Part shown: positions 332 to 27,392 of the stretch, in pieces | How the letters are laid out: each line of letters starts with the position of its first letter | Numbering within the stretch: position 1 is the stretch's first letter | IMG/VR virus record: IMGVR_UViG_3300029651_000001 | Location: 22,512-86,511 of that record | Source of the DNA: a virus | Reading direction: 5' to 3' (one strand) | DNA length: 64,000 bases | Notes under the pieces: model-generated | Told to the model about the DNA's origin: nothing | The model's input: only the letters and a program-made list of their open reading frames with translations | The model's database searches: none | Translations under genes and position numbers: made by a program

Positions 332-455
332 ATAAGCTCCAAAGGGTTAAGGTCCTCCCACAAAGAAGGCCCCCGACAACAGGGGCCAAGAGGAGGAGAA
401 CTATGCGCGGAAAACAGTCTAAATGTAGGGTGTTATAATTTGCTAGCTGGCTACC

Positions 456-674
456 TCACAGGTTTACTACTTGTTTGTTAGATACTCCACAAAGTAATTG
501 AATTGAGTCGTCCGTAAGGGATTCCATCCAGGTTCGCCCGGATTTAAGTGCTTGCCCCCGTGCCGAGAAAGACCATTTTGACTCAGCCAATCGAAGCTCC
601 TGACCCTCAACCGCGGCGAGTACGACGAACCGGTATCGGTTACGTTCAGTGTTGCGTTCGGCGATCAACCTCAT
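456..674 (-). CDS. hypothetical protein
   Basis: ORF track frame. ATG at 674 is preceded by TTTTGGAGGAG. Confidence 0.5.
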   Translation of the reverse strand: MRLIAERNTERNRYRFVVLAAVEGQELRLAESKWSFSARGQALKSGRTWMESLTDDSIQLLCGVSNKQVVNL

Positions 675-834
675 GGCAGTCTCCTCCAAAACACGGTCAC
701 GAATATACCGACCACCCCGACAGATTGAAGAAAAAGGACCTTCATGATTTGAATCAGATCCATGCCGCTGCGTTCCAGTAGCGTGCTGCTCACAAACAAG
801 CAGACCACCCCAAGGATGAACAGGATTAACCTCA

Positions 835-1611
835 TTACAGCGACTCCTTCATCTTCTCGGCCAGAACGAACAATGCTTTGTTCAGCCGGCGATCCTCATC
901 GATCGATGTGATCGGACGAGAGCGAGTGCGCCGGCCCTTCTCGGAAAAGGTACGGACACCTCCCTTGATCAGATTCTCCTGGACCCGGTTCATTGTGGTC
1001 CACAAGTCGTTGCCGTAATCATCCCGGCGGCGGGGCCGTAGGAGCCCCTCGATCGTGGCGGGGTTCGGCTTGTTGTCTGCGTCCTTCAACACCCAGGCGG
1101 CCTCCGCAAAGGCTCGCTGTTGCTGGGGTCGTAGCTCAATAGCCCGCATCTCTTGGGAGAGTTCCGCGACTTTCGGGAGGTCCTCGACCACGGTGAACAC
1201 GCCCTCGATCACGTCATCCATGGTATGGCCAGTGTGTCGCACCCGGTGTGAGGCAACCATCGAATCCGGAACACACATCTGGTTCGAGCAGATGCACCGG
1301 AACAGGCCGCCCTCGAAGATCCAGGCGGAAGCGCCGTCGTGGGAATTGATGAGGGAAATCTCGCCGATAATGTCGCCCTCCTCGAGCCGGTGATCGTGGC
1401 TACGCAGGGTGACGCGGTGCTTCATGTACCCGCGGCGATTTGCGTCTCGGGCTTTCGTTTGATACGCCCGGACCGGGTAGAACCCTTGCTTCTCCAATGC
1501 CTGCAGCACTTGCAAGGTGGAGAACTGAACGTATTTCTCGGAAAGGTTCGGGGCGTGGGTCGTGGTGGCGACGGACGGGGCTTTGCTTACGACTTGGTCT
1601 AAGGTCAACAT
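835..1611 (-). CDS. DUF932-family phage/plasmid protein
   Basis: Contains the LINSHDGASAW motif, and its size is typical of DUF932. ATG at 1611 lies 8 nt after the leader CCCTTTGGAGAC. Confidence 0.8.
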   Translation of the reverse strand: MLTLDQVVSKAPSVATTTHAPNLSEKYVQFSTLQVLQALEKQGFYPVRAYQTKARDANRRGYMKHRVTLRSHDHRLEEGDIIGEISLINSHDGASAWIFEGGLFRCICSNQMCVPDSMVASHRVRHTGHTMDDVIEGVFTVVEDLPKVAELSQEMRAIELRPQQQRAFAEAAWVLKDADNKPNPATIEGLLRPRRRDDYGNDLWTTMNRVQENLIKGGVRTFSEKGRRTRSRPITSIDEDRRLNKALFVLAEKMKESL

Positions 1612-1671
1612 AGGTTTTGTCTCCAAAGGGTAAATACAAGGAGGGCGCCGATGCTGCGGCGCCTTCGTGGG

Positions 1672-1914
1672 TTAAGATTTAAGGGCCTTCACCTCCATCA
1701 AAATCGCTTTGAAATCCTCGACGGCCAGGCGCAGGTCCATCTCAGTGCCGTGAGTGCTGCACAACCTCTCCGGATTCGCCCAACCTCTCCCTTTTGGGCA
1801 ACCCTCCCTCGACGAAGACAACTCCCTTGCCTCGACTACCCGCCTAAGGCGGTTGTACTGGCTGTCCAACTCTTCCATGAGTTTCTTGTGTCTGATTTTG
1901 GTCAGTACGGGCAT
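1672..1914 (-). CDS. hypothetical protein
   Basis: 80-aa ORF starting directly after the stop of the upstream gene. Confidence 0.6.
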   Translation of the reverse strand: MPVLTKIRHKKLMEELDSQYNRLRRVVEARELSSSREGCPKGRGWANPERLCSTHGTEMDLRLAVEDFKAILMEVKALKS

Positions 1915-1916
1915 AC

Positions 1917-2174
1917 TTACCTCGTCTCTGGTCCGCTGAAACCGATGCTAGGCTCCCGGTGCTGACGGGGCGGAGTGCGGAGTACGTGCTGTTTCTCCTC
2001 GGGCTCCGGATCCTTCGTAGCCCGGTACACGCCGTAACTGGTGAAGAACCCGCCCAAAGCCTCGATCGATTCGTCCAGGTGTCGAACTAAGAACTCCCGG
2101 CCGAAGTAGAAACCTCCGCCAGCGCCGATGAGGAAAACGAGGGTGAGCTTGGTAAACTCGGTTATGTCGATCAT
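1917..2174 (-). CDS. small membrane protein
   Basis: Hydrophobic segment LTLVFLIGAGGGFYF. Leader motif lies upstream of the ATG at 2174. Confidence 0.65.
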   Translation of the reverse strand: MIDITEFTKLTLVFLIGAGGGFYFGREFLVRHLDESIEALGGFFTSYGVYRATKDPEPEEKQHVLRTPPRQHREPSIGFSGPETR

Positions 2175-2211
2175 GCTTGTCTCCAAAGGTTGTGGTGATT
2201 AGCTCAGCAAA

Positions 2212-2478
2212 TTAAGTACCCGTCCTTAACAGCTCCTCGCTGCGATCGATCACCTCGACCTCGCCTGTGGTCTGTATCCAAACCTTTGCGCCGCAAGAGA
2301 GTGGGTTATCCGGCCGGTAAACGACTCGCGCCGCCTCCTTGCCGTCCTGTCCGTAGATGACCACCTCGTGGCCATAGGCGTTAGTCTTGCCTTGCTTGAC
2401 GGTCACCACCGGGAAGCGGAAGCCGTTCCTTGCGTTGGCTTTGATACGATGCTGGTTGACGTGGATGATCGATTTCAT
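2212..2478 (-). CDS. hypothetical protein
   Basis: Internal ATG at 2478 follows the leader AACCCTTTGGAGACC. The longer N-terminal extension in the track overlaps the upstream gene. Confidence 0.7.
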   Translation of the reverse strand: MKSIIHVNQHRIKANARNGFRFPVVTVKQGKTNAYGHEVVIYGQDGKEAARVVYRPDNPLSCGAKVWIQTTGEVEVIDRSEELLRTGT

Positions 2479-2498
2479 AAGGTCTCCAAAGGGTTGAG

Positions 2499-2990
2499 TT
2501 ATCTCATGTCCTTGCGATGAGCAAAGCAAGGGTTCAGGCTTGCGTTGTTCGGATATGCTTTGGTTGACTGCCCTGTCTTTAGGCATGTCCCGTAGCACAC
2601 CCATTTCCCGTTCTCCTTGCGTTGGAAAAAGCCACAGTCATTACAATCCGCGTCTATCTTCTGGCACTCGTAGGCTTCTTGGGCCTGTCCAGTCGACTTG
2701 CACTCCTTGTGACAAGGAGACTGGAAGGCCCACCAGTATGACGTCGTGGTGTCGAACGTCTTATCCGTGAGTGGTCCATTACAGAACCTGCACGTTTTGC
2801 TCGGACTGAGGTGCTTCAGCAAGAGGTAGGCCCGTAGGTACCGGTCTGGACTTGGGTCTAGTTCGGCTACCTCCAGTCTCTGGCCGGACAGAAGCGCCAG
2901 CTTCATGTCCTTTTCGGAGATGGGCAAAGGTCCTTCGAAGCCCAGGCTGAGGTGTTTTAGAAGTTGTCTATCTCGTTTGTCATTACTCAT
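2499..2990 (-). CDS. Cys-rich (zinc-binding-like) hypothetical protein
   Basis: Several CxxC-type cysteine pairs. Its ATG overlaps the upstream stop (ATGAGTAA). Confidence 0.65.
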   Translation of the reverse strand: MSNDKRDRQLLKHLSLGFEGPLPISEKDMKLALLSGQRLEVAELDPSPDRYLRAYLLLKHLSPSKTCRFCNGPLTDKTFDTTTSYWWAFQSPCHKECKSTGQAQEAYECQKIDADCNDCGFFQRKENGKWVCYGTCLKTGQSTKAYPNNASLNPCFAHRKDMR

Positions 2991-3135
2991 GGTCTTTCTC
3001 AAATACGAACGCCCCGCACTCCGGGCACTCCAGATCGGAGAACTGGTCGCCGGCTTCGTGGCGCAAATGGGCATCTTTTGCGGGGTTGGGGTCGGTTCCT
3101 TCCCAGGCGCAGTTTTGGCAAGCGTAAGTAATCAT
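2983..3135 (-). CDS. 50-aa zinc-ribbon mini-protein
   Basis: Hand translation gives MITYACQNCAWEG...ECPECGAFVFEKDHE. ATGA overlap at its start and an ATGAGTAA overlap with the downstream gene's start at its 3' end. Below the ORF-track length cut-off. Confidence 0.5.
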   Translation of the reverse strand: MITYACQNCAWEGTDPNPAKDAHLRHEAGDQFSDLECPECGAFVFEKDHE

Positions 3136-3641
3136 AAGGCATCCCTTGCCTCGAACTCAGTCCAGGACTTGAACACGCGTCCGCTCAAGTGAGTCCTCTT
3201 GAACCGGTAAACCTCTCCGTGCTGGGACAATCCGTATTGCCTTTTCCGATTGGTGACCTGAAGACCTGTAGGTTTGAGCCTGGGCTTGAGCTCGACGATG
3301 TCACCCTCCTCGAACTTAGTGTTCCGAGCGGCGTGATACCTCCTAACTCTCTCCCGCCACTCCTCGCTCGCCACCGGAACCATGTCGAGGTAGGAGAGCG
3401 GGCAGGTGTAATAGTAGGGGTGCATCGATTCACACATGTCCTTGTAACCCCATCGGCAATGTTCAGGGTGCCTCGACGCCTTACTGAGCAAGTAGCAGCC
3501 GATGAACCTGTCTTTGACTCCTTGTTCTACTGTCCACAAGGTGTTGCCGACTGTGCAGTGGGCGTAGACGGTGGCGCCGTTCCCTTCGACGAGGTGTCTG
3601 ATTAGGTCCTTACGAGTGGGTTCACAGAATAGCCAGCCCAT
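3132..3641 (-). CDS. hypothetical protein
   Basis: ATG at 3641 (MGWLFCEPTRKD...) immediately follows the upstream stop. The upstream part of the track ORF looks non-coding. Confidence 0.7.
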   Translation of the reverse strand: MGWLFCEPTRKDLIRHLVEGNGATVYAHCTVGNTLWTVEQGVKDRFIGCYLLSKASRHPEHCRWGYKDMCESMHPYYYTCPLSYLDMVPVASEEWRERVRRYHAARNTKFEEGDIVELKPRLKPTGLQVTNRKRQYGLSQHGEVYRFKRTHLSGRVFKSWTEFEARDAL

Positions 3642-3643
3642 AG

Positions 3644-3946
3644 TTATGTTCTCCCCTTGGCTTCTGCCAAAGCTTCTGCCACCATGTCGGCAAAATAATC
3701 GTCCTTGTACTTGGTGTAGAACTCTTCGGATGTCTTGTAACAGCAGCACCCGAGGTAGGCAGTACCGAGTTCCTTGCCATCCATCCAAGCAGACACCTTG
3801 GCGCGGAACCAGGCTAAATCTGTAATCTTCCGGTAGTCCTTTTCAGACCAGCCGCACTCCTTGATGAAGTGGTGGCGCATGGAAGTGTCTTCAGGCTCGG
3901 CCTCGAAACAGATGATGAAGCCATCTCGCTCAAATAGTGGGATCAT
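3644..3946 (-). CDS. hypothetical protein
   Basis: ATG at 3946 follows the leader TACCCTTTGGAGAA. Confidence 0.7.
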   Translation of the reverse strand: MIPLFERDGFIICFEAEPEDTSMRHHFIKECGWSEKDYRKITDLAWFRAKVSAWMDGKELGTAYLGCCCYKTSEEFYTKYKDDYFADMVAEALAEAKGRT

Positions 3947-4071
3947 AGGTTTTCTCCAAAGGGTAAATACAGGCTCCGTATGCTGCGGAGCCAAGAGTTA
4001 CTTCCGCCGCCGCAGCCAACGGCGCAGGACTCGGAACAAGGAGAGGTAAAAGTTAAGAATCCAACTGTGCA

Positions 4072-4401
4072 TCAGTCCTCTTCGAAGGCGGTGTGCCCAA
4101 TAACCAACGCCGCGGTCGTCCTCAACCCTCGCTCAAGCTCCTCGATCCGATCCAGCAACTTAAGCACGGTGGCAGGGTTGAAGGTGGCGATGTGTTTAGC
4201 GTTCACTTCCGCCGGCTCAATGTGTACGTGAATAGCCTCCGCGTGCCACGTCTTTCTACCGTGATACAGATACTCCACATCGATCGTCTGGGTAGGTAGG
4301 TCTGCTTCCTCCCCTGCAGGCAGGAGTTCTCCGAGTTTCCATTCACCTTGGTTCGCCGCCTCGGCGATGCGCCGAAGCCTCGCTAAATTCAATTCAGTCA
4401 T
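4072..4401 (-). CDS. Ead/Ea22-like protein (paralog A)
   Basis: Motifs AEAANQGEW and NAKHIATFNPATVLKLLDRIEELE. Confidence 0.7.
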   Translation of the reverse strand: MTELNLARLRRIAEAANQGEWKLGELLPAGEEADLPTQTIDVEYLYHGRKTWHAEAIHVHIEPAEVNAKHIATFNPATVLKLLDRIEELERGLRTTAALVIGHTAFEED

Positions 4402-4445
4402 TCTTTTGCCTCATGTTCTTCGATGGACTCAATCTCGTGCTTTGC

Positions 4446-4631
4446 CTACATTGCCGCACCGTCTGCACTGCGCCTAGACGTTAGATCAACACGAACCTGG
4501 TCTCCTTTCTCGATCCGCCACCCGTATGGGAACGGCTCCATCGCCTCCAAGTAAGTGATCTTTACCAACCAGCCCTTATGGCTGAACTCCTGTGCAACCA
4601 TATACGTCATCCCATTATCCAATTCGCTCAC
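4446..4631 (-). CDS. hypothetical protein
   Basis: GTG at 4631 overlaps the upstream stop (GTGA). The N-terminal part of the track ORF is Arg-rich and unlikely to be coding. Confidence 0.45.
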   Translation of the reverse strand: MSELDNGMTYMVAQEFSHKGWLVKITYLEAMEPFPYGWRIEKGDQVRVDLTSRRSADGAAM

Positions 4632-4936
4632 GGCTTGTCTCCCCATTCCAAGCAGTCGTCGATGTTCGCCCGCAAGTCGTAGCCGTTCTCCCGCTCGAAG
4701 TTCCTGGCGAGCCAAACGTCGCCCAGGCGGGAGGCGCCGGTCACCCGGTAACGCTCGCCCTGGTAGGTGCAGAAGAGCTTGAACTGCTTCATCCAAGGTC
4801 TGAAGTACGACTGGAACACCGCGTTCAGCCGCATGTGAAACAGAACGAAACGGGCGTAGTTCTCCTCGTGGGAGTAGTTGTCGATCCAGTCGTCGACGTG
4901 GGTCGGACTAGTAGATAAGGCGGATTCCGTTGTCAT
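4628..4936 (-). CDS. hypothetical protein
   Basis: 102-aa ORF in the operon frame. Confidence 0.65.
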   Translation of the reverse strand: MTTESALSTSPTHVDDWIDNYSHEENYARFVLFHMRLNAVFQSYFRPWMKQFKLFCTYQGERYRVTGASRLGDVWLARNFERENGYDLRANIDDCLEWGDKP

Positions 4937-5216: not shown

Positions 5217-5220
5217 ACCT

Positions 5221-8302: not shown

Positions 8303-8371
8303 AATGTGTCTCCAAAGGGTGCGACGCCGTTTTGCGACGGCGCCGCAGGGTCAACTCCGGTCTCTGTGGGT

Positions 8372-8773: not shown

Positions 8774-10753
8774 TCAGAAAAGGATATTGAAAAGACGGGT
8801 GCTGTTTTCGGTGACCACCCGAACCGTCACCGTTTCCCGCTTGGTGGAGGAAAATCCCAAGCCAGCCAACTGCTCATCCGTGACAGGGCACTTGGTCTTA
8901 TCACCCAGGACCTCGAATACCTTGCGGTGCTTTTCCAGAGGACCTGCCAGGAATTCGTTGTAGATTCCCCGAAGCGGTTGGTCGGCCTTGCATCCTTCCA
9001 GGATGAAGAACCAATGCTTGTTGCCGACCGCGCTATCCCCCCAGTAATTGGGACTGAACAGAACGGTGCGGACCTTGACGAACTTCTCCGTGGGGATTCC
9101 CCACACTTTCTTCGAGATTCCTTCTCCGTTCAGCTTGGGGTGAATTCGCGCCTCCACGATGACACCATCCCTGACCACAAACGTGCCCACCTCCACGTTC
9201 CCCACCACACGGTGCGGATAGGTGTACTGCTTGACCCCATTACCGTCAGCGATCTCGGCAATGAAGCCCACGTCAGACGTTTCCCGGTTGGTGTACTGAT
9301 TGACATACACCTGATATACCCCATCCTTCGGTGCCTTGAACGCCACATTTTCAACCGGTTCTCGAGAGGTACCGCAGCCAGCATTCATGTCCACATCCAG
9401 CTTGCCGCTCTTGTTGGCGTAGTAGATGTGATTTCCATTGGGTTCCACCACATGAATGTCCAGATCGTCATAGTTGAACCAGGCCAGACTGAAGCGGAGT
9501 TTGGCGTCCACGTTGCCCCCAGCCTTCTTAACCTTTTCCGTGATACTGTCCGTCACGTTGCCGTTGTAAGACCAGGCAAAGCCGTTGTCCCACTTGAACA
9601 GCCGGCCGGAGTCGGTGTGTACCGGAGCCGTCACCGCGACCAGATTAGGGGTGTGCAAGTTCTTGAACAGAATGCTCATCTCCTTGGCGTTGGGCAGGAC
9701 TTCAGCCATGAACGCTTCGATGGTGACGTCCGCGGCCTGAGCGGTGTTGCCCGGCTTTCGCTCAACGGCTGCAGCCATCAGCAGATCCGCAACCCCACCC
9801 TTCATCATGGGGCGGACGGACCCATCCACCCAGAGAACGTCGTTGACGCTCACGTCGGAGATGGTCGCCAGCCTCCGCTCCAAGGCGGATTCAAGCCCCA
9901 AGCTTTCGATCGTTTCCATGGCTTGCTTGACCATGGCCGGTGTGATCAGCGCCGTCGTACGCTTGTAGTTCGCAGGCGCCACCTTGGTTTCGAAGGAACG
10001 GACAGCAGTTTCAAGGTCGACACCGTCCGACAGATCCGTGACGAGGGTGCCAATGACTGTATTGCGGAACCGCGCCGCCCGGCGAGTATAGTTGCTTGCG
10101 ATGAACAGCCGTCGTTCGGCCGGTTCCAAAGCCTTGTAGGTCCGCAAGCACTCAGCGAACTCCTTCAACGCCGGCAGATGTTCCTCGCCTCGGTACAAGC
10201 TCCCAGCGGCAATCAAGTCGAGGACCGTGTTGGCTGCCTCGACAGTCAACTCCTCCAACCCTCGCTCGAACACGGCCATAGTTGTGGCAGCTTCGCCCAC
10301 ATCCCGGTCGGGGGTACGGGTAAAATGCCGGTCGGCGATCCGACCATGGAAATGGTTCCAGATTTTGGTCTGGCCATCGACCACTTGTGGGGTCGCCGCC
10401 GCACCGTACTGCCGCTCCTTGGTACGGAAGACAGAGACGATAGGCTGGGCCAGGACATGCTCATGCAAGGCTTTGGAAACGACGTCATACGGGTGCTCCA
10501 ATCCGCTTACGTCCCAGAGCGTCTCTACCTTGCCGTCGACGATGGCAACTACTCCGCCCAGGTGTTTGATGAAGTTCCGGCAGCAGGAGCAGTCGTGTTC
10601 CGTATTCGTCCGATAGATCGGGTTTGTTCCTGCCGGAAAGGCGGCAAGATAGATGTCCCAAAGCTTGCTGGAATCGACCACGAAGAGCTCGTGGGCGGAC
10701 AGCTGGGCGAAGCGGGCGGCGGTCTTCTCGGCAAAGGGTTTGAAGTTTGGCAT
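8774..10753 (-). CDS. large conserved-looking early protein of unknown function
   Basis: 660 aa from the ATG at 10753 (SD AAAGGAGAC). N-terminal HDCSCCRNF motif. Central LDIHVVEPNG...LDVDMNAG block resembles the YfaP/DUF2135 type of fold. Confidence 0.85.
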   Translation of the reverse strand: MPNFKPFAEKTAARFAQLSAHELFVVDSSKLWDIYLAAFPAGTNPIYRTNTEHDCSCCRNFIKHLGGVVAIVDGKVETLWDVSGLEHPYDVVSKALHEHVLAQPIVSVFRTKERQYGAAATPQVVDGQTKIWNHFHGRIADRHFTRTPDRDVGEAATTMAVFERGLEELTVEAANTVLDLIAAGSLYRGEEHLPALKEFAECLRTYKALEPAERRLFIASNYTRRAARFRNTVIGTLVTDLSDGVDLETAVRSFETKVAPANYKRTTALITPAMVKQAMETIESLGLESALERRLATISDVSVNDVLWVDGSVRPMMKGGVADLLMAAAVERKPGNTAQAADVTIEAFMAEVLPNAKEMSILFKNLHTPNLVAVTAPVHTDSGRLFKWDNGFAWSYNGNVTDSITEKVKKAGGNVDAKLRFSLAWFNYDDLDIHVVEPNGNHIYYANKSGKLDVDMNAGCGTSREPVENVAFKAPKDGVYQVYVNQYTNRETSDVGFIAEIADGNGVKQYTYPHRVVGNVEVGTFVVRDGVIVEARIHPKLNGEGISKKVWGIPTEKFVKVRTVLFSPNYWGDSAVGNKHWFFILEGCKADQPLRGIYNEFLAGPLEKHRKVFEVLGDKTKCPVTDEQLAGLGFSSTKRETVTVRVVTENSTRLFNILF

Positions 10754-11105: not shown

Positions 11106-11123
11106 ACGTTGTCTCCTTAGGGT

Positions 11124-13689: not shown

Positions 13690-13704
13690 GTGTTCTCCAA
13701 AGGG

Positions 13705-13971
13705 TTAGTGAACCGTAACGGACTCAAATCCGTCGACATGACTCCGCGTCATGTCGAGCAGCATGTTCGCGAAGCTGATCCAGTCCTGTAGGTTGTCCGG
13801 GCGACCTCTCAAGCGCTGCAAGTGCAAGTAGAGCTTGGCCTGCAGGTTGCAAAGGATCGACAGCTTCAGGAGGATCTCGTCCGCGGGACTCTTAGCCAGG
13901 TCCTTGGTTTCTTTGGTTAGGAGAGCGCCGAGCTGGTCGGCGATCTCCTCGGGTTTGTTGAGGTTTGTCAT
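13705..13971 (-). CDS. hypothetical protein
   Basis: Start MTNLNKPEEI. Confidence 0.6.
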   Translation of the reverse strand: MTNLNKPEEIADQLGALLTKETKDLAKSPADEILLKLSILCNLQAKLYLHLQRLRGRPDNLQDWISFANMLLDMTRSHVDGFESVTVH

Positions 13972-14723: not shown

Positions 14724-14740
14724 GGTTGTCTCCAAAGGGA

Positions 14741-15362: not shown

Positions 15363-15422
15363 GGGTTGACCTCCAAAGGGTTAAGTACATGTCCTTGGCG
15401 CCGCGTGCTGGCGGCGCCCAAC

Positions 15423-16538: not shown

Positions 16539-16587
16539 GCAATTTCTCCAAAGGGTTAGACTGCTTGTGCTGGGCGCCGCTAGCCGA

Positions 16588-16887: not shown

Positions 16888-16929
16888 ATTGTCTCCAAAG
16901 GGTTGAAGGCGCCTGTGCTGGGCGCCGGA

Positions 16930-17169
16930 TCAAAAGCGTCGAAGGTTCTTGTATTCGCGGGAGATTCTCTCACCTCGTATAAAGTCGTCCGCCAGATTCT
17001 CCAGGGCCACGCCGAACAGGAGGCCTCGGCTGTGGTTGTCTGGATCGATTGCGCCCGAATCAAGCAGGCGCTTGACCTCTGCTAAGAACTGGTCTTTGAT
17101 TTCTTCAGCCCGCTTCCGGGCAAGGAGTTGAGTCTCTTCCCGATAGGTTAGATTGGGTCTCCAAACCAT
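16930..17169 (-). CDS. hypothetical protein
   Basis: 79-aa ORF. Confidence 0.6.
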   Translation of the reverse strand: MVWRPNLTYREETQLLARKRAEEIKDQFLAEVKRLLDSGAIDPDNHSRGLLFGVALENLADDFIRGERISREYKNLRRF

Positions 17170-17178
17170 TGCAGTCCT

Positions 17179-17448
17179 CTAGGCTACGGTCAGAGACTCG
17201 ACATCCTTGATGATGTCGTACTGTTGTACGAAGACGCTGTACTCTTCCCAGTCGATCCTGTCCTCGTGGATGACTATAGCGACCTTGTGTATCCCGCTCC
17301 CTGTGAGGTTCAAGGTCCTTAGAATCACAAGGCGATTCATGGCTACGTCCGCAACGCCTTTACGCTGCGCTATGACAAGGCGTCCGCCCGGCGGCAGGCT
17401 GCTCACTGCTTCTTTAATCTTTGGTAAAGAAAGTTCTATTGGGTGCAT
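17179..17448 (-). CDS. hypothetical protein
   Basis: Start MHPIELSLPK after the leader motif. Confidence 0.65.
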   Translation of the reverse strand: MHPIELSLPKIKEAVSSLPPGGRLVIAQRKGVADVAMNRLVILRTLNLTGSGIHKVAIVIHEDRIDWEEYSVFVQQYDIIKDVESLTVA

Positions 17449-17469
17449 ATTCGTCTCCAAAGGGTTGGT

Positions 17470-18058: not shown

Positions 18059-18187
18059 TCCTGTGTCTCCAAAGGTTAAGAAAAATCACACCGGTCGATC
18101 CGATCCATCAGGCACATCTCGAATGCCAACGGGTGACCGGGTTGGTGGTTTGCCGGATTTCGTCGACGATGCCCTGGGAGGTTTTCC

Positions 18188-20227: not shown

Positions 20228-20355
20228 GGTTACCCTCCAAAGGGTTGTTTACTGATCTTTATGTCCTTGGGTCGGTGGGACCAGGCTGTGACCCTACGGC
20301 CGATGCTTGTTGACTGCGCAAACGGTGCGCAGCCAAAGGTTCCTTAACCGTTTGA

Positions 20356-20658: not shown

Positions 20659-20722
20659 GGTTTGCTCCAAAGGGTTTAAGTACAGGTCCTTAACGCGGAC
20701 CAGACGGTTAACTCAACAGGTG

Positions 20723-21259: not shown

Positions 21260-21472
21260 TTATGTCTCGCATAGCCTCGGGGCCCTCTTCAGCCGTCTTG
21301 CCTTCTTCGCCTTGCGTCGCTCCTCGGCCACGGCCAGGGCACGTTTGTCAGCCTCGGGGTCCTGCTTCTTAGGTAGCGCACGAGGCTGAGGCTGCGGGAG
21401 AGCCAGATCCAGTAGGCCGGGCCGCAGCGTGGCAAGAAGCCCCAGAGCAAGCAACGGGCTTCTACTTTTCAT
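21260..21472 (-). CDS. possible secreted basic protein
   Basis: Signal-like start MKSRSPLLALGLLATL followed by a Lys/Arg-rich tail. Confidence 0.4.
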   Translation of the reverse strand: MKSRSPLLALGLLATLRPGLLDLALPQPQPRALPKKQDPEADKRALAVAEERRKAKKARRLKRAPRLCET

Positions 21473-22040
21473 CCAGCACCTCCGTGCAATGCATTGCAAG
21501 GACTTCATAGGCTACCTGGCTTAGCTCATGCTCCATGCTCTCTTTGCTTTCGAAAATACCAGTCGTGAACACATATCCCATCTTGTCCCGATACAAGGCG
21601 TAGTGAACCTTCCTGATCTTCGGTTTCATGTAAAGAAAAGGTTCACCGAGACAGCCGTAGCCTTGCGCAGAGAGTGCGTGAACTCCCCCGGTATTGAGGT
21701 TAATCGTCACTACGCGGAATGCTGGACGCGCTTCCGTAACATAGGCAACGAATTTATGCTCGCTGCCGTCAGTGTCCACGGCCAGCTGGCCGGCCTTGAA
21801 AGCCTCCAAATTAAAAGGAATTCTGTTCACGTTTTCAGTCTCCAAAGGGTTGCGCAGGATTTTTAATTCCTCGGTAGGTCCGTATAACGCCATGGCCGGC
21901 TCGCCACCATTACCGTAATCCGTATACACCTTGAGCAGTCCATCTTGGGTTCTCACCACCCGGACGACCCGCTCGTTGTGTTTGGGGCCTCGATGACCAA
22001 TCCAATCACCAGGCATGAGGTCCTTAGCCTCAATCTTCAT
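21462..22040 (-). CDS. hypothetical two-domain protein with an in-frame internal leader motif
   Basis: 192 aa. An in-frame AACCCTTTGGAGAC plus GTG at 21830 precedes the C-terminal domain. Confidence 0.7.
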   Translation of the reverse strand: MKIEAKDLMPGDWIGHRGPKHNERVVRVVRTQDGLLKVYTDYGNGGEPAMALYGPTEELKILRNPLETENVNRIPFNLEAFKAGQLAVDTDGSEHKFVAYVTEARPAFRVVTINLNTGGVHALSAQGYGCLGEPFLYMKPKIRKVHYALYRDKMGYVFTTGIFESKESMEHELSQVAYEVLAMHCTEVLDEK

Positions 22041-22671
22041 TTTTAGCCCTCCAAAGGGTAATCAGGCCTGCAAGGATGAGGGTTGTAGTGGACGGCTCCG
22101 GCAGTTCACGGGTCTCTCTGTCCGGCGCCGCCTCCCTCACCTGTAGCCGGGTGATGTTCCCGCACACCCGAGGTACGGCGATGATGTACTCGCCCAGCCA
22201 GTACACCTCGGCTCGCTCGTAATGCAAGTCCTTGAAATTGGTTCGGGTTCCGTAACACATGCTGTTGCCGAACGCCATCGAATAGGTGGGAACATACCAA
22301 TGGTGGGTGTCTCTGACGCCTGCATTGCTGAACACCGCCTCGTCATCGGAATCCTTACGCTTGATCCGGTCGGTCAAAACCTTGGCGGAGTCCGTGTCTA
22401 CGCCGAGGGTCCGCAAGGCGGAGTAGATATCCCCCGTGAATGGGTGGCTGCCAGGATTGCCCCATTTGCAGCCGTAGCGGAGTTGAAGCGGCCTGTATTC
22501 CGGCTCCCTGATCGGTTCTACCAAATCGGCTGCGTTGCCCAGATCCGTAACACCGGTGGAGTCCGGAGTTGAGGGGGCGATTGTGACGGTCGTGATCGCC
22601 GCCGACAGCGGCAATGAAAAACACAAGCTCCCGACGATGAACCCTCGCCAGAATCTCGACGGTCTTTTCAT
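22030..22671 (-). CDS. exported PEP-CTERM-anchored protein
   Basis: N-terminal signal peptide MKRPSRFWRGFIVGSLCFSLPLSAA. C-terminal LPEPSTTTLILAGLITLWRAKNED has the PEP motif, a TM helix and a basic cluster. Confidence 0.8.
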   Translation of the reverse strand: MKRPSRFWRGFIVGSLCFSLPLSAAITTVTIAPSTPDSTGVTDLGNAADLVEPIREPEYRPLQLRYGCKWGNPGSHPFTGDIYSALRTLGVDTDSAKVLTDRIKRKDSDDEAVFSNAGVRDTHHWYVPTYSMAFGNSMCYGTRTNFKDLHYERAEVYWLGEYIIAVPRVCGNITRLQVREAAPDRETRELPEPSTTTLILAGLITLWRAKNED

Positions 22672-22716
22672 AGGAGGTCTCCAAAGGGTAAGTACATGTC
22701 CTTAAGGATTGAAGGA

Positions 22717-22745
22717 CATCGGCCGTGGTGAGAACACGGCCGATG
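22717..22745 (-). terminator. 11-bp GC-rich hairpin, possible end of the tmRNA transcription unit
   Basis: CATCGGCCGTG-7 nt-CACGGCCGATG. On the RNA strand it is followed by TCCTTCAATCCTT, which is only moderately U-rich. Confidence 0.35.
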
Positions 22746-22959
22746 GCTTGCCGGATAAGCTCCGGCGGGCTCTTGTTGCTGGACTTGTACGGCTTACAGC
22801 TCCCGTTTGGTTGTACCTTGATTTCCCCCTAATGCTTGCGGGCTGCAGGGTTTGTGCATCTTGGGTGCGCGAATTCCCATGTCCGGACGCAGTCCCAAGT
22901 AGCAATCAAAGCATTACCATCCAACCAATAATGGCTAGGTCGCAGCTCCCCGGATCGTG

Positions 22960-23370
22960 TCTGTTACCGGATAAGCTCCGGCGGGCTGTTGTCGCCAACG
23001 ACTGCGATTCGGTTGCCCGGCTTCTGTTCTCAAGCGCCGGGCAGGCTCGGCTTTAGGCGGCTGCCTTCAGCGGGGCATACGTATCATCGTTTGCCTTTGT
23101 GGTTTTGCGCGGTTAACGCCCGTCGCCTTTCGTGCTGCCATCTCTGCTTTGCTGCCCCGTCGAAACCTGGCTGGCCCATCAGAAGAAGGCTGTTAGAGCG
23201 TGCAGTAGGAGTCGAACCTTCTTTTGGTGGACCAGGCCGGAATTGAACCGGCGTCCGAGACAACTCCACTTCGATGGAGTTACAGCAATTCGGCGCCCAA
23301 TCTATTCGGCAGACTCCCACTGGACTAGGAGCGCATACTGCCGGCATCCCTACAGGGCGGCCAGGTCTGC
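22960..23370 (-). ncRNA. ssrA: circularly permuted (two-piece) tmRNA gene; outer boundaries approximate
   Basis: Acceptor piece ends TCGGACGCCGGTTCAATTCCGGCCTGGTCCACCA, with its 3' A at 23225. A 47-nt spacer follows. Coding piece starts GGGCCAGCCAGGTTTCGACGGGG at 23177. GGGCCAG pairs with CTGGTCC including a G3:U pair. Tag frame GCAAACGATGATACGTATGCCCCGCTGAAGGCAGCCGCCTAA lies at 23094..23053. Confidence 0.85.
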
Positions 23371-23495
23371 CTTATTGTGAAATCGGTAATATCCCTACAA
23401 AGTCCGTGTCTTCTCGTTCTCCAATTAGGGCGACCCCGTCCGGGCGTAATACATCCAGCTAGGATTAAAAATACCGGCGAGGTCGCGGAACACAT

Positions 23496-23522
23496 AATAA
23501 AAAAGCCGGCGTTGAGCCGGCT
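23496..23522 (-). terminator. rho-independent terminator
   Basis: AGCCGGC-GTTGA-GCCGGCT stem-loop, followed on the minus strand by TTTTTATT. Confidence 0.75.
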
Positions 23523-23546
23523 ATGGGGTCAGTTCACAAGGTTTGG

Positions 23547-23786
23547 CTAGCCGTGTGAGCTACACCACCGTTTCGATACGAAATATCCAATCTGGTGGCT
23601 GACTACCCGGTAAACACCTTGCCCAAACCAGCCCTGACTGGGGACACCGTGCTTCTTCCGGCCGTAGATGTCGGCCGCCGGCACTCCGAAGACCCACACG
23701 GCCATGGGCGTCAGGTCGCCTCCGCAAGCGGGGGCCAGGGCTAGGGCGATCGAGAGGTAAAGGGTTAAGGTGATTGTTGATGTCAT
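23547..23786 (-). CDS. small exported/membrane protein
   Basis: Start MTSTITLTLYLSIALALAPACGG after the leader motif. Confidence 0.6.
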   Translation of the reverse strand: MTSTITLTLYLSIALALAPACGGDLTPMAVWVFGVPAADIYGRKKHGVPSQGWFGQGVYRVVSHQIGYFVSKRWCSSHG

Positions 23787-23870
23787 ATGATCTCCAAAGG
23801 GTTGAGGTTGTACATCCTTGTCGGCCGTCCTTGGCCGCATCCTTAAGTACTTGTCCTTAAACTTTCCAGG

Positions 23871-24176
23871 TCAAGGCTGGAACCCGCTTAATGCGTTCTT
23901 CTGACCCTTCAGGAACTGCTGCTCCAACAAGGATCTGAGTTCCTGCTCGGTCAGGATGAAGATGTCTCCGTCCAGTTCGATGAGGCTACCCGCCATTTTC
24001 ACGGTTATCGGCTCGTCGTCGGCAAGGATCAGGTGAGCCAGCTCGTGAGCCAGCTCGTCTTTCAGATAACGGATCGCGTCATCCATGGTGCCGTATCGCG
24101 GGTCTTTCATGTAGGTTTGCTTTGCTCGGAAGCGCCTCTTCGGCAACTCGTTGGCGTCGAATATCTTGTCAAACAT
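23871..24176 (-). CDS. hypothetical protein
   Basis: Start MFDKIFDANEL after the leader variant TACCTTTGGAGAG. Confidence 0.65.
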   Translation of the reverse strand: MFDKIFDANELPKRRFRAKQTYMKDPRYGTMDDAIRYLKDELAHELAHLILADDEPITVKMAGSLIELDGDIFILTEQELRSLLEQQFLKGQKNALSGFQP

Positions 24177-24256
24177 CTTTACCTCTCCAAAGGTAGGACA
24201 TAAACGTCCATAAGGACAAGGGATTGAGGACGTGTACTTAATCAATGAATCCTGAA

Positions 24257-24445
24257 TTAAACGTCATGTTCGGAGAGCCGCTGATATTCGAGGTCGAACC
24301 ATTTCCACCAAATCGATCTCTCGGGCTCTGTTTTATATGGGTTTTCGTCGGCGCTTTGCTCTTGACCGGGACATTGATAATACCGACGAGCTGCTTGAAC
24401 AGCTTCAAGGGCGATTTTGTTTTCGTTCTGCTTATCGATGCTCAT
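24257..24445 (-). CDS. hypothetical protein
   Basis: 62-aa ORF. Confidence 0.5.
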   Translation of the reverse strand: MSIDKQNENKIALEAVQAARRYYQCPGQEQSADENPYKTEPERSIWWKWFDLEYQRLSEHDV

Positions 24446-24457
24446 TATTGTGCCCCG

Positions 24458-24649
24458 TTAGCGTGTCCTTCGGGGTGGCCGTTCGTCGATCTCAATACCT
24501 CGCCGTGCTGCTTCCAGCAATGCCAGCTGTGCGTAAGCCTTGCGGCCGGCGGCGGATTCCTTCTCGTAAACGCCGCGGACTTGGGCATCCGTACAGGTTT
24601 TGACGTAAAGCGTGAACTCGAGTCGATCTCGTTTGGTCATTGATTTCAC
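24458..24649 (-). CDS. hypothetical protein
   Basis: 63-aa ORF. An alternative start MTKRDRLEF lies at codon 4. Confidence 0.5.
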   Translation of the reverse strand: MKSMTKRDRLEFTLYVKTCTDAQVRGVYEKESAAGRKAYAQLALLEAARRGIEIDERPPRRTR

Positions 24650-24672
24650 CTTGATGTGTGGGTTGACGTTGT

Positions 24673-25347
24673 TCAGGGTTCCTCTGCAAGAAGGCTCAAT
24701 CGCTCCGCTTCGATCTCTTCGTCGGTCAGGTCGACGGGCTGGATCTTGCTGGCGAGGGCGGACAAGTCTTCCGTATGTTCCGTGAAGTTCTGCGGCGGCT
24801 GGCCTGCTCGCAAGGTGGCAAGGTAAGGGATTATGAAATGGTCCAGCGTGGATTTCATGATCTCTTTGGCCGCGTTTTGTAAGTGTATGGTTAACTTTTC
24901 GGCAATGATGCTTTCGGCTTCCGTGACTAGACTCCTCAGCAGTGTCGCTTCCGCTGTCTCTCGAACCTCAAAGACGGGCATTCCCGCCCGACCAAAGACC
25001 ACCCATTCGTCCGACAGGTCCAAACCAAACCGAGTACGCCGGTTGTTTCGGCTGTAAATCGACGTAATCGACAGGTTGTACTTCTGGACCCACTCGTCAA
25101 TAGGCCAAGTAATACCTCGAATAGTGAACGTCAGCACGGACTTACGAGTCCGGCGATCCCTAGGCTGCCCGTAGTCCGTATGACAGCGACAGCGGAACCG
25201 TCCTTGGTTCCACAAGGATGTGGAAATCGAGCGTAATCCCTCACAGGAATTACACATAGCAAGCCAGTGTTTCCCTCTTCTTCCCTCGGGTCCGTGAGAT
25301 GTCCCAATGACTTTGTACCCATTCTTAGTGTCGCCGATCTTTGGCAT
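24673..25347 (-). CDS. first gene of the leftward early operon; N-terminal Cys cluster, unknown function
   Basis: 224 aa with motif WLAMCNSCEG...FRCRCH. Lies directly downstream of the AT-rich intergenic region. Confidence 0.75.
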   Translation of the reverse strand: MPKIGDTKNGYKVIGTSHGPEGRRGKHWLAMCNSCEGLRSISTSLWNQGRFRCRCHTDYGQPRDRRTRKSVLTFTIRGITWPIDEWVQKYNLSITSIYSRNNRRTRFGLDLSDEWVVFGRAGMPVFEVRETAEATLLRSLVTEAESIIAEKLTIHLQNAAKEIMKSTLDHFIIPYLATLRAGQPPQNFTEHTEDLSALASKIQPVDLTDEEIEAERLSLLAEEP

Positions 25348-25913
25348 ACCATCACCTGTAAAAACTAAATAAGGCAGGAGTTCTACGCAAAATGGCGTAG
25401 ATTTAGTTTGATATTGTTAGTTTAAGTTTGATTTTGCGTCCGCGCAACAAAATCATTCTGCCATAACCCGTATGTACAAGAGAGTCGGGTATGATTCTGT
25501 CCATGCCAATCTGTGTGTACTTGCAACAGAAACGCTCGTTCAATAACTGAGATCATAGCCGGGTTTATTTGTCAATACATGCGCGCAAAAAGCATGTATA
25601 ACTTATGTACAACGCAGTTGGCCAGAAATTTTAGATTTTTGGGCGGCGATGTACAAAAAGTATAGCTACGGGGTCGTTAGTATTGCTGCCAGCGTTTTGA
25701 CGCGGTGTTGAGGAAAATCAATGGTATACCTGGGAGACTTTGACGCTGTGCAGCGTAAAGCAAGGTTTTAAGTCTTTTTCGATATTAGAAAATGCTAATG
25801 CGCTTCCTAAAACAACTTTCGCTCGCAGCAGCGAACCAGCAGGCGCGATTTACGCCCAATGAATTTTTCGACTTTGCTCCTCAAAATAAAAAAACTAACA
25901 ATACTTCAATAAT
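25348..25913. promoter_or_regulatory. AT-rich non-coding control region (candidate early promoter/operator or origin)
   Basis: No credible ORF. ATGTACAA occurs at 25472, 25605 and 25649. Palindrome ATACATGC-N9-GCATGTAT lies at 25575..25599. AACTAAAT...ATTTAGTT hairpin lies near 25365-25410. AGTTTGAT direct repeats are present. Confidence 0.6.
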
Positions 25914-26180
25914 CTATACATTAGAAGGCATGTTCTTTGCATCCTTATGATTTACGTTTAGAATCAAAGGGTTAGACCACTCTTGCCAAGTCCATACCTC
26001 TCCTTGCTGGACCACCCAACCCATTCCTGACTCGCCTTGTTCCTGGATAAACACGATTGCAAACTTCTCCCCAAGCTTCCTTGCCTGGGACACAGCGACA
26101 TCCCACCCCTCAACCACCCTCCCCAGCAACACCACCTCTTCTTGCAGCTCCACGCCGACCCTTACTTCATACCGACGCAT
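25914..26180 (-). CDS. hypothetical protein
   Basis: Start MRRYEVRVGV after AGAGAGGCAATT. Confidence 0.5.
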   Translation of the reverse strand: MRRYEVRVGVELQEEVVLLGRVVEGWDVAVSQARKLGEKFAIVFIQEQGESGMGWVVQQGEVWTWQEWSNPLILNVNHKDAKNMPSNV

Positions 26181-26347
26181 AATTGCCTCTCTTGCTGCCG
26201 GGCCACCAACTCCGCCTTGACTTCCGACATTTCCGCGGCCAATAAATCCCTCTCCACGCCTGGCGTCATCTTTGACAGCTGCCGTACCAACATCGACAGC
26301 GTCACCGTCAACACCTTCGTATCCTGACAAAGCCCCTCATTACTCAT
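26162..26347 (-). CDS. hypothetical protein
   Basis: 61 aa with an ATGA junction to the upstream gene. Confidence 0.45.
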   Translation of the reverse strand: MSNEGLCQDTKVLTVTLSMLVRQLSKMTPGVERDLLAAEMSEVKAELVARQQERQLCVGMK

Positions 26348-26556
26348 GCGAATAACCTCCCGACAGCGTTGTCTACGTCCTTGCGAGCTGCCAGCTCCCG
26401 CTTCAAGATCCGTATGGCTAGATTACAATCTAGCCTTACATTACCCGGATTCAAACGATCTCTGAGGATCTCCAGTTCGAGCAGACGTGCTCGGATTTGT
26501 TGCTCACTTGCTGTGTCGGCGAAGCGGGTGACATTCTTGATAAATTCTTCAGGCAT
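26344..26556 (-). CDS. hypothetical protein, paralog of 26754..26963
   Basis: Start MPEEFIKNVT after a family-A palindrome and the leader motif. Confidence 0.6.
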   Translation of the reverse strand: MPEEFIKNVTRFADTASEQQIRARLLELEILRDRLNPGNVRLDCNLAIRILKRELAARKDVDNAVGRLFA

Positions 26557-26585
26557 GACACATCTCCAAAGGGTAATGACAACCT

Positions 26586-26606
26586 CAAGGACAGCCGTCC
26601 TTAAGG
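26586..26606. promoter_or_regulatory. family-A palindrome
   Basis: CAAGGAC-AGCC-GTCCTTAAGG. Confidence 0.5.
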
Positions 26607-26608
26607 CA

Positions 26609-26635
26609 TGAAAAAAGCCGGCGATCAGCCGGCTT
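26609..26635 (-). terminator. rho-independent terminator
   Basis: AAGCCGGC-GATCA-GCCGGCTT stem-loop, followed on the minus strand by a T-run. Confidence 0.7.
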
Positions 26636-26753
26636 GCATCCATACAGCGTCAGCGACGCTGTGCAATACACATGTGTATTCGGTTTGCAGTTTTACGTGC
26701 CCCAAACCGGAAAAGACACGCTTAAGGACAACTGTCCCTAAGGTGTTACAGCG

Positions 26754-26963
26754 TCACTGACGCTGTTCATCCTTACGGTCGGCCGCGTAGCGGCTAGCCA
26801 ATTCCTTCTTTAACACTTCGACGGCGTGCTGCGCTGCCGCACGCGTACCGTCGTTCTCGCCGTGCTCGGCGAGAATGGCCAAAGCCACCAATTGAGCGAG
26901 GATGGTTTCCTCGCTTGCCTTGGAGGCAAGGAGGTCCACCCATTGGCAGAAATGTGTGGGCAT
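26754..26963 (-). CDS. hypothetical protein, paralog of 26344..26556
   Basis: Start MPTHFCQWVD. Its stop codon lies inside a family-B palindrome. Confidence 0.6.
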   Translation of the reverse strand: MPTHFCQWVDLLASKASEETILAQLVALAILAEHGENDGTRAAAQHAVEVLKKELASRYAADRKDEQRQ

Positions 26964-27032
26964 TTCAGGTTTCTCCAAGGACAGTATTCTTATGACTGAC
27001 GCTGTCAAGACAGCGTCGATGGGTTCGCATCC

Positions 27033-27052
27033 TTAAGGACGGCTGTCCTTAA
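27033..27052. promoter_or_regulatory. family-A palindrome (perfect 8+4+8)
   Basis: TTAAGGAC-GGCT-GTCCTTAA. Confidence 0.55.
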
Positions 27053-27297
27053 TGAGCGACGGCTCCCCCGCAATAGCCGCAGTCGCCGTGGCGTGTGCGG
27101 TCCCCGCCGTCGGGGCACTCACACCGGCGGGGCATAGGGGCAGGCAGCATCTCCCAAGTCACCCACTCCGCCCCTTGCGGGGCGTTTTCGAGTGTGTAAC
27201 GAGCAGCATCCTTGCCGGTCAGTTCCCCGTCGTGCTGAACGAGGAATGATCCTTGGTCGCAAAAGGCATCCCAGCCCCAGTAGACTCGGTACAACAT
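27049..27297 (-). CDS. hypothetical protein with C-terminal Cys cluster
   Basis: Start MLYRVYWGWD and motif CECPDGG...CGYCGG. Leader variant upstream. Confidence 0.6.
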   Translation of the reverse strand: MLYRVYWGWDAFCDQGSFLVQHDGELTGKDAARYTLENAPQGAEWVTWEMLPAPMPRRCECPDGGDRTRHGDCGYCGGAVAH

Positions 27298-27392
27298 AGG
27301 GATTCTCCAAAGGTAGGACAGCGTCAGCATTCATACGGCTGACGCTGTAGGGCTAAAAGGCCCCGAGTACAGGCGTACTCGGGGAGCGGGAA

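Follow-up and report, generated by a model that had tools for sequence, protein, structure and literature searches.

What is the role of a short, almost invariant leader that stands just before the start codons of many leftward genes of a temperate phage and is missing from its rightward genes? The question is raised by a stretch of 64,000 nucleotides (hereafter the window; positions 22,512 to 86,511 of IMG/VR record IMGVR_UViG_3300029651_000001), in which the 12-base motif ACCCTTTGGAGA (coding strand; its plus-strand reverse complement is TCTCCAAAGGGT) recurs upstream of leftward genes. In the non-structural arm of the phage, runs of overlapping genes each have the motif at their head, and we put the chances at about even that it acts at the level of the mRNA, as a start-associated translation-initiation signal.

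Distribution of the leader motif

The window is part of the ~93-kb genome of an uncultured temperate siphovirus (ENA ERZ27257335, contig k141_10347, 93,085 bp), the putative host of which is probably a proteobacterium. The contig ends lie inside the window coordinates, and the genome is thus circularly permuted relative to the window. Rightward genes span 29.1-59.96 kb and include those for terminase, portal, protease, major capsid protein (MCP) and tape measure. All remaining genes form a single leftward, non-structural arm of ~62 kb, which extends past both window ends and has the integrase at its far end. The arm comprises ~80 small genes within the window, most of them without annotation, and outside it a HU-like gene, DNA ligase, primase, SNF2 helicase, PolA, dUTPase, SbcCD-like genes and ribonucleotide reductase (RNR). 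Genes were called with our own heuristic and cross-checked against the JGI and ENA calls, which gave 35 rightward and ~79 leftward genes in the window.

With at most one mismatch TCTCCAAAGGGT has 23 matches in the window, compared with 0.44 +/- 0.70 in dinucleotide-preserving shuffles, and 22 of the 23 read ACCCTTTGGAGA on the minus strand. The eight single mismatches in this set all fall at motif positions 1, 2 or 12 and none in the core. When two mismatches are allowed there are 29 minus-strand matches, 26 of which are followed by a spacer of 4-8 nt and then by ATG (25) or GTG (1), opening an open reading frame (ORF) of 65-258 aa. In the other three (10728, 34337 and 61692) the GGAG is disrupted and no ORF follows, and these look like chance matches. 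The 9-nt core CCTTTGGAG is found 25 times on the minus strand, 24 times followed by ATG, and the alignment of 34 copies yields the consensus (TT)AACCCTTTGGAGA(C). The first-pass annotation had described the motif as non-random, facing one way and placed at Shine-Dalgarno distance, which these figures bear out; all 24 positions that it had listed hold the motif, with offsets of 0-8 nt, and sites at 21839, 11112 and, on the plus strand, 33875 can be added. The copies in the window are the following:

336..347, minus strand: motif ACCCTTTGGAGC, 4 nt before ATG 331 of a 93-aa HU-like gene
1620..1631, minus strand: exact motif, 8 nt before ATG 1611 of a 258-aa DUF932 gene, with a CAGCAT-loop hairpin (1644-1663) upstream
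2180..2191, minus strand: motif AACCTTTGGAGA, 5 nt before ATG 2174
2483..2494, minus strand: exact motif, 4 nt before ATG 2478; right-hand boundary of a strain-specific insertion of a 163-aa gene
3953..3964, minus strand: exact motif, 6 nt before ATG 3946, with a CAGCATA-loop hairpin (3972-3992) upstream
8309..8320, minus strand: exact motif, 6 nt before ATG 8302
11112..11123, minus strand: motif variant ACCCTAAGGAGA, 6 nt before ATG 11105
13694..13705, minus strand: exact motif, 4 nt before ATG 13689
14729..14740, minus strand: motif TCCCTTTGGAGA, 5 nt before ATG 14723
15370..15381, minus strand: motif ACCCTTTGGAGG, 7 nt before ATG 15362, abutted by a palindrome (15381-15398; one base shared), with a CAGCAC hairpin (15397-15418) upstream
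16545..16556, minus strand: exact motif, 6 nt before ATG 16538
16892..16903, minus strand: exact motif, 4 nt before ATG 16887, with a CAGCACA hairpin (16908-16926) upstream; right-hand repeat of a two-gene indel
17454..17465, minus strand: exact motif, 5 nt before ATG 17448; left-hand repeat of the two-gene indel
18066..18077, minus strand: motif AACCTTTGGAGA, 7 nt before ATG 18058
20234..20245, minus strand: motif ACCCTTTGGAGG, 6 nt before ATG 20227
20664..20675, minus strand: motif ACCCTTTGGAGC, 5 nt before ATG 20658, abutted by a palindrome (20676-20693)
21839..21850, minus strand: exact motif inside a 192-aa ORF (21462-22040), 8 nt before in-frame GTG 21830
22048..22059, minus strand: motif ACCCTTTGGAGG, 7 nt before ATG 22040
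22678..22689, minus strand: exact motif, 6 nt before ATG 22671, abutted by a palindrome (22688-22705; two-base overlap)
23791..23802, minus strand: exact motif, 4 nt before ATG 23786
24184..24195, minus strand: motif TACCTTTGGAGA, 7 nt before ATG 24176
26563..26574, minus strand: exact motif, 6 nt before ATG 26556
27304..27315, minus strand: motif TACCTTTGGAGA, 6 nt before ATG 27297
62358..62369, minus strand: exact motif, 4 nt before ATG 62353 (131 aa)
62577..62588, minus strand: motif CCCCTTTGGAGC, 6 nt before ATG 62570 of a 65-aa Sigma70_r4-like protein
63582..63593, minus strand: exact motif, 5 nt before ATG 63576 (199 aa)
33875..33886, plus strand: motif GCCCTTTGGAGA, the sole rightward copy, opening a 20-aa ORF (33891-33953) between terL and portal, with a CAGCAC hairpin (33810-33829) upstream

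About ten further copies are present in the leftward arm outside the window, before the ligase, dUTPase and SbcC-like genes among others, and a variant one base shorter precedes PolA. The copy at 21839 possibly drives internal initiation at GTG 21830, from which a 122-aa C-terminal product would result; all three strain variants that were compared have this copy.

The motif is found on ~25 of the ~79 leftward genes, about a third of the non-structural genes, and what these share is an intergenic gap. The median upstream gap is 62 nt for genes with the motif versus 3.5 nt for the other leftward genes, which mostly overlap or abut their neighbour and are presumably translationally coupled, to judge from the overlaps. 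Where a leftward gene follows a gap of 15 nt or more, the motif is present in 21 of 41 cases, compared with 2 of 36 for those with a smaller gap or an overlap (p = 1e-5) and with none of the 13 rightward genes that follow a gap (p = 7e-4). Scores against a position weight matrix are bimodal, 24 genes scoring high and very few falling in between. The motif had been put forward as shared by more than 25 leftward genes; the count found is ~25, and the motif does not extend to the whole class but is concentrated on genes after a gap.

None of the 35 called rightward genes carries the motif, the sole plus-strand copy preceding only a 20-aa ORF, so that the proposed avoidance by virion genes stands; the plain AAGGAGG described for the late genes at 37515, 37991 and 46279 was likewise found. 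The difference between the two arms extends to their ribosome-binding sites (RBS) in general. In the leftward arm GGAG occurs in 58 of 79 genes, mostly as T-GGAG-A, with a pyrimidine-rich 5' side in 31 of the 58; in the rightward arm it occurs in 12 of 35, mostly as the purine-extended AGGAG(G), and only one of the 12 has a pyrimidine-rich 5' side. The reading of the motif as an early-gene signal is correct insofar as it is confined to the non-structural arm, but an early class as such is not established: the motif marks the first gene after a gap, and the arm also holds replication genes, the conserved core genes for ligase, PolA, dUTPase and RNR being among those preceded by the motif.

Ribosome pairing, conservation and companion repeats

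The first-pass annotation had held that only GGAG can be explained as a Shine-Dalgarno sequence and that ACCCTTT lies outside the pairing with the 16S tail. A duplex calculation with the tail of the E. coli 16S rRNA, which may not be that of the host, agrees: the motif reaches -6.4 kcal/mol, pairing through GGAG only, versus -12.2 kcal/mol for the late-gene AAGGAGGU. The 16S 3' tail is conserved among proteobacteria. The GGAG is therefore a correctly spaced but weak Shine-Dalgarno sequence, and a plain extended Shine-Dalgarno can be dismissed, since nothing but GGAG pairs with the E. coli tail. Against the whole E. coli 16S rRNA the upstream part UUAACCCUUU gives -9.3 kcal/mol, the mean for shuffled sequences being -9.25 kcal/mol. 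The RBS of motif genes is predicted to be more open (probability of being unpaired 0.54, versus 0.47 and 0.46; p = 0.003 and 0.001).

The motif is retained in the closer relatives of the phage, as far out as 61% primase identity. On IMG/VR contig 3300021184_000030 (loci L001 and L103), from a relative 85% identical in MCP, the leftward genes have the same motif and the plus-strand copy before portal is kept as well. There, the arrangement of hairpin, motif and 20-aa ORF (33810-33953 in the window; 5830-5973 in L001) is kept together with the length of the ORF, whereas the peptide is not, which suggests a regulatory upstream ORF rather than a protein. In a relative with 61% primase identity (L188) the motif precedes the orthologous 140-aa and 246-aa genes, PolA carries TCCCTTTGGAGA, preceded by a CAGCACA hairpin, and dUTPase carries GCCTTTTGGAGA. 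Over eight orthologous pairs identity is 85% in the motif but 65% in the 40 nt that precede it (p = 6e-5); a 1-nt shift causes one pair to be under-counted. Distant relatives of the same gene order (25-29% primase identity) are without the motif: one (L249) has a variable T-rich tract and GGAGAC at 4-6 nt from the ATG, in many cases immediately behind a terminator, and another (L189) its own small family, AACCRATAGAGGAATCAAC-ATG, together with a different palindrome. The motif is likewise missing from locus L250.

Beyond these relatives the motif is scarce. A pattern scan for exact matches in other IMG/VR phages gave, among the matches listed, only chance singletons apart from the known relative. 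An exact scan of 185,579 species-representative genomes of bacteria and archaea with the TTA-prefixed form gave 58 single matches across many phyla, a number of the order roughly estimated for chance; two good copies at one locus were seen in none of these genomes, a collection that may not include the host. Such scattered single matches give no sign of a host-wide leader among the genomes covered.

The motif is also absent from 58 DUF8224 loci of IMG/VR, many of which have unrelated repeats of their own. Six of these loci (L013, L015, L024, L056, L058 and L065) come from unrelated phages with many-copy repeats of 12-16 nt in a similar early region; examples are GGGGCACCGCTACTGC, present 13 times with an ATG at most 16 nt downstream in about half of the copies, and TTGGAATGGATC, present 17 times. 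The phage itself encodes a 659-aa DUF8224 protein (8774-10753, minus strand; phrog_1735, E = 3.5e-233). Its identity among widely differing phages (N4-like, Vi1-like, a cyanophage and Rhodoferax prophages) is 45-60%, an unusually high conservation for a protein with no assigned function. As a marker of relatedness it is uninformative, since it is widespread in phages.

Three further families of repeats occur in the motif-bearing intergenic regions: hairpins with a conserved loop, an 18-bp palindrome, and a palindrome of the form ACAGCGTC-N3-GACGCTGT. The hairpins are GC-rich and differ in their stems from copy to copy, but share the conserved loop CAGCAC(A) or CAGCAT(A), i.e. CAGCAY(A), always on the sense strand and in both arms. 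Six are present in the window, compared with 0.02 expected from Markov simulations, and others occur outside it, elsewhere in this genome as well as in relatives (loci L002, L003, L006, L001 and L188):

1644-1663, 3972-3992, 15397-15418 and 16908-16926, minus strand: CAGCAY(A)-loop hairpins, the last of which (16908..16926) is a representative copy, GGCGCC-CAGCACA-GGCGCC
29858-29875 and 33810-33829, plus strand: CAGCAY(A)-loop hairpins

The combination of variable stems and a conserved loop on the transcribed strand suggests an RNA hairpin that is recognised via its loop. The integron attC boundary, an imperfect palindrome of 57-141 bp with conserved R and L boxes in its stems, shows the opposite pattern and was rejected as a counterpart. 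The hairpins lie upstream of the motif at a distance of 1-58 nt, many at 1-15 nt. Most motif copies have no CAGCAY(A) hairpin, and some of the hairpins are followed by a T-run, as in a terminator.

The 18-bp palindrome TTAAGKACNNGTMCTTAA (TTAAGGACNNGTACTTAA on the sense strand) is present in 13 copies where none is expected, all in the leftward arm, between 2212 and 29100 of the window. The halves are GGAC on the 5' side and GTAC on the 3' side of the sense strand in seven of the 13 copies, and two copies are reversed. Three copies (15381-15398, 20676-20693 and 22688-22705) abut the motif. Pairs of copies are found in the control region adjoining a 234-aa gene (28331-29035), where the region at 29.05-29.10 kb is divergent. 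The palindrome has the look of an operator or stoperator. In another part of the genome there is a gene for a CRP-like regulator (L006, 2044-2748). The third family is confined to the immunity-proximal region at 26.6-28.3 kb. Sites of the two palindromes are:

22688..22705, minus strand: representative 18-bp palindrome, TTAAGGACNNGTACTTAA
29055-29072 and 29083-29100: 18-bp palindromes, the pair at 29.05-29.10 kb
28287-28304: 18-bp palindrome, from the pair at 28.27-28.30 kb
26644-26662, 26748-26766 and 27855-27873: palindrome ACAGCGTC-N3-GACGCTGT, with variants at 26998, 27318 and 28304

As for the phage itself, megablast gave no match to known phages at the DNA level, and protein identity to cultured phages is at most 36% for portal and at most 53% for DUF8224. 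The sole clue to the host is a permuted transfer-messenger RNA (tmRNA) of the two-piece type (22987-23342, minus strand), which scores 119 bits with Rfam beta_tmRNA RF01850 (gathering score 84) and 124 bits with tmRNA_permuted RF04321, carries the tag ANDDTYAPLKAAA according to ARAGORN, and occupies a gene-free stretch of 875 nt between the genes at 22671 and 23547. Its betaproteobacterial type hints at a betaproteobacterial host. An MCP scan of genomes and scans of IMG/VR with the repressor and DUF932 gave no clue to the host. Next to the integrase lies a 196-aa gene (59971-60561, minus strand) with GspH / N_methyl (pseudopilin-like) Pfam matches in the JGI annotation of an identical contig, which may be a moron, i.e. 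an accessory gene dispensable for phage growth. At the start of the rightward arm a sequence TTGCCA-17-TACAAT (29294-29331, plus strand) stops 6 nt short of ATG 29329, the leaderless-type start of the first rightward gene (124 aa, without family match).

Proposed mechanism and its alternatives

In the mechanism that we propose, with about as much to be said for it as against it, the GGAG(A) would act as a short Shine-Dalgarno sequence 5-9 nt before the start codon, and the invariant pyrimidine tract (UA)ACCCUUU just 5' of it as an element for sequence-specific recognition or as an enhancer. The motif would be used wherever ribosomes have to be newly loaded in the ~62-kb arm, namely on the gene that comes first after each gap or hairpin; neither the virion genes, with their strong AAGGAGG, nor genes that overlap the one before them, and are presumably coupled to it, would need the motif. 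As a side effect, the identical copies would provide short homologies for the gain and loss of gene cassettes. Our guess is that CCCUUU would have a sequence-specific reader, which could be a factor that the phage encodes or a component of the ribosome. We favour such a reader over generic binding by S1 because the distant relatives use variable T-rich tracts, whereas in this clade 9 nt are invariant.

Several points weigh against translation initiation as the role of the motif. About half of the leftward genes after a gap lack it, the predicted difference in accessibility is small, and the pairing was computed on the E. coli 16S rRNA only, which may not match the host's. The early proteins, most of them unannotated, showed no domain of an RNA-binding protein or translation factor, and their domain annotation pointed to no candidate reader either. 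An effect on translation is suggested by geometry alone, and the strict identity of many copies could come partly from spread by recombination instead of from selection on each base.

The translation signal could also be part of something larger, a private code for translation or RNA processing, and this we regard as possible but doubtful. Here, a phage-encoded reader would recognise UAACCCUUU beside a deliberately weak GGAG and a second reader might take the CAGCAY(A) hairpins, the two together cutting or insulating the polycistronic transcript into separately translated units. If true, such a code would allow the non-structural genes to be turned on or off as a class, independently of the virion genes with their AAGGAGG.

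It is unlikely that the motif is instead the target of an endoribonuclease specified by the phage, or of a translational repressor, that shuts off or processes the non-structural mRNAs late in infection, with the hairpins possibly as part of the site. T4 RegB cuts GGAG in early Shine-Dalgarno sequences and RegA binds early ribosome-binding sites, which would serve as precedents. The different leaders of the two arms agree with such a target, an invariant 9-nt core would suit a sequence-specific protein, and the sense-strand hairpins with their conserved loop, far in excess of expectation, stand 1-15 nt upstream of many copies. However, neither a RegB or RegA homologue nor any other RNase domain was detected with Pfam and PHROGs, nor was an RNA-binding domain; the distance between hairpin and motif varies and most copies have no hairpin; and the AAGGAGG sites of the late genes contain GGAG too. 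A CsrA/RsmA site, the RNase E consensus and the order of lambda boxA/boxB were compared by eye, as consensus sequences, and showed no match.

Recombination at the motif raises the question whether the repeat is a mere legacy of cassette shuffling, in which only GGAG and a loosely pyrimidine-rich spacer matter and the identical 12-15 nt persist through exchange between copies. A two-gene cassette of 562 bp (89 aa and 79 aa; ~16904-17465) is present or absent between near-identical strains (L187, 11402-11941, versus L185), and the crossover falls inside its two flanking motif copies. Two more replacement boundaries coincide with a motif or with a hairpin and motif together, and strain-specific replacements are also seen downstream of the ligase gene and near 2495-3000. 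Such a legacy has a precedent in the promoter-early stem-loop (PeSL) cassettes (PMC4122927), and it is in line with the distant relatives, where only a variable T-rich tract and GGAGAC are found. Yet the motif also precedes core replication genes, and at orthologous sites it persists despite 39% protein divergence and drifting flanks; moreover, a repeat of 12 nt is very short for homologous exchange to be efficient, and the boundaries of other indels are not at motifs. We consider this explanation distinctly unlikely.

Least likely, in our view, is an element that acts at the DNA level, either a compact phage-specific promoter or start element or an oriented, stoperator-like site for a regulator, for which GGAG would serve only incidentally as RBS. 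The motif does resemble stoperators in being one-way, intergenic and present in many copies, and the operator-like 18-bp palindrome abuts three of the copies. Furthermore, sigma-70-like sites are not enriched (8 versus 8.5), so that something else must drive transcription of the long leftward arm; the phage encodes a small Sigma70_r4-like protein, and the ESAS elements of Cluster K mycobacteriophages appear to hold promoters (PMC11373665). Nevertheless, the motif as a promoter is unlikely because its tight spacing to the ATG (4-8 nt), with a perfect GGAG, is what an RBS requires and a promoter does not. The alignment of 34 copies revealed no upstream element at a fixed distance, -35 and -10 boxes included, beyond a preference for TTA, and some copies directly follow the T-run of a terminator, too closely for a promoter to fit in between. 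The proteins of the genome yielded no phage RNA polymerase, the large 947-aa protein that was considered for this role being a primase. Also, no copy of the motif is present in the divergent control region that adjoins the putative repressor gene, only a degenerate AACACTTTCGGAGA.

Relation to known systems

Pyrimidine-rich or U-rich elements next to a Shine-Dalgarno sequence are familiar from the epsilon enhancer of T7 gene 10, a feature of a single gene for which pairing with 16S nt 458-466 has been proposed, and from the U-rich translational enhancers of the S1 type. Like epsilon, the motif has such an element directly 5' of the Shine-Dalgarno, and UUAACCCUUU-GGAGA is superficially similar to UUAACUUUA...GGAGA. 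It differs from epsilon in being present on dozens of genes and in an upstream part that pairs with the E. coli 16S rRNA no better than shuffled sequences. With the T4 RegB and RegA targets it shares a class-specific type of early-gene RBS centred on GGAG, but the motif is far longer and more uniform, and homologues of both proteins are missing among the domains detected.

The stoperators of Cluster A mycobacteriophages are, according to the summary given in a paper that cites them, asymmetric intergenic repeats of 13 bp in one orientation and 20-30 copies (cited in PMC3203893). The same summary describes them as DNA sites that bind the repressor and match the operator at the early promoter, lacking a Shine-Dalgarno sequence and lying at no set distance from start codons (cited in PMC3203893). 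The likeness is in the asymmetry, the intergenic position, the single orientation and the many copies; of the traits that the summary gives for stoperators as DNA sites none holds for the motif.

The PeSL cassettes of T4-like phages consist of a stem-loop followed by a sigma-70 early promoter (PMC2839356, PMC4122927). Both systems have repeated composite elements, stem-loop included, in the intergenic regions between small early genes, and in both, indels and replacements that distinguish close relatives have junctions within the repeats, here for one indel and two boundaries, with others elsewhere. In the phage studied here, by contrast, no promoter consensus is detectable, the space between hairpin and motif is only 1-15 nt, and the conserved part is the ribosome-binding region itself.

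The closest counterpart is found in the start-associated sequences (SAS) of the Cluster K mycobacteriophages, first described in 2011 (PMC3203893). These are asymmetric repeats of 13 bp in 11-19 copies, 3-7 nt before mostly ATG starts and in the non-structural arm only; they have a Shine-Dalgarno core with conserved flanks unable to pair with rRNA, are virtually absent from host genomes, and are preceded by inverted repeats in about half of the copies (PMC3203893). Their role was still ill-defined in 2024 and 2025 (PMC11373665, PMC12699233), although the ESAS now appear to hold promoters (PMC11373665).

The motif shares with SAS that it is a short asymmetric repeat in many copies and one orientation (12-13 nt here versus 13; 26 minus-strand copies and one plus-strand copy in the window), placed 3-9 nt before mostly ATG starts (here with a spacer of 4-8 nt, 25 ATG and one GTG). 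Both are confined to the non-structural arm of a temperate siphovirus and have a Shine-Dalgarno core with a conserved flank; this flank cannot pair in SAS and probably does not in the motif, to judge from the 16S rRNA of E. coli, which may differ from the host's. The virtual absence of SAS from host genomes has a possible parallel in the lack of clustering of the TTA-prefixed form in species-representative bacterial genomes, among which the host may not be. In both a subset of the copies is preceded by inverted repeats, and the arrangement of the palindrome resembles that of the ESAS repeats.

On the other hand, the consensus GGGATAGGAGCCC of SAS is unrelated to ACCCTTTGGAGA, the phage belongs to an unrelated lineage and probably has a proteobacterial host, the copies are more numerous (26 in the window and ~10 in the rest of the leftward arm), and the conserved flank is on the 5' side only. 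The ESAS lie ~50 bp upstream and consist of an imperfect 17-bp inverted repeat with SigA-like -35 and -10 boxes, whereas the companions here are conserved-loop hairpins and an 18-bp palindrome (at three sites), with no -35 or -10 found. Because the sequence is unrelated and the upstream companions are different, we regard the motif as an analogue of the Cluster K SAS/ESAS and not as a member of that family.

An independent case with an unrelated sequence, in an unrelated phage with a probably proteobacterial host, implies that start-associated sequences are not peculiar to mycobacteriophages. It also provides a handle for comparison, in that the geometry, the restriction to non-structural genes and the kind of upstream repeats are the same. 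What it adds to SAS is the position of the motif at the heads of runs of overlapping genes, the crossover inside the repeat, and a possible second RNA element in the form of the conserved-loop hairpins. If a specific reader exists, the motif would offer compact and portable control of a whole gene class at the ribosome-binding site, and should the private code outlined above turn out to be real, the phage would provide an independent second example that could explain the SAS of the mycobacteriophages.

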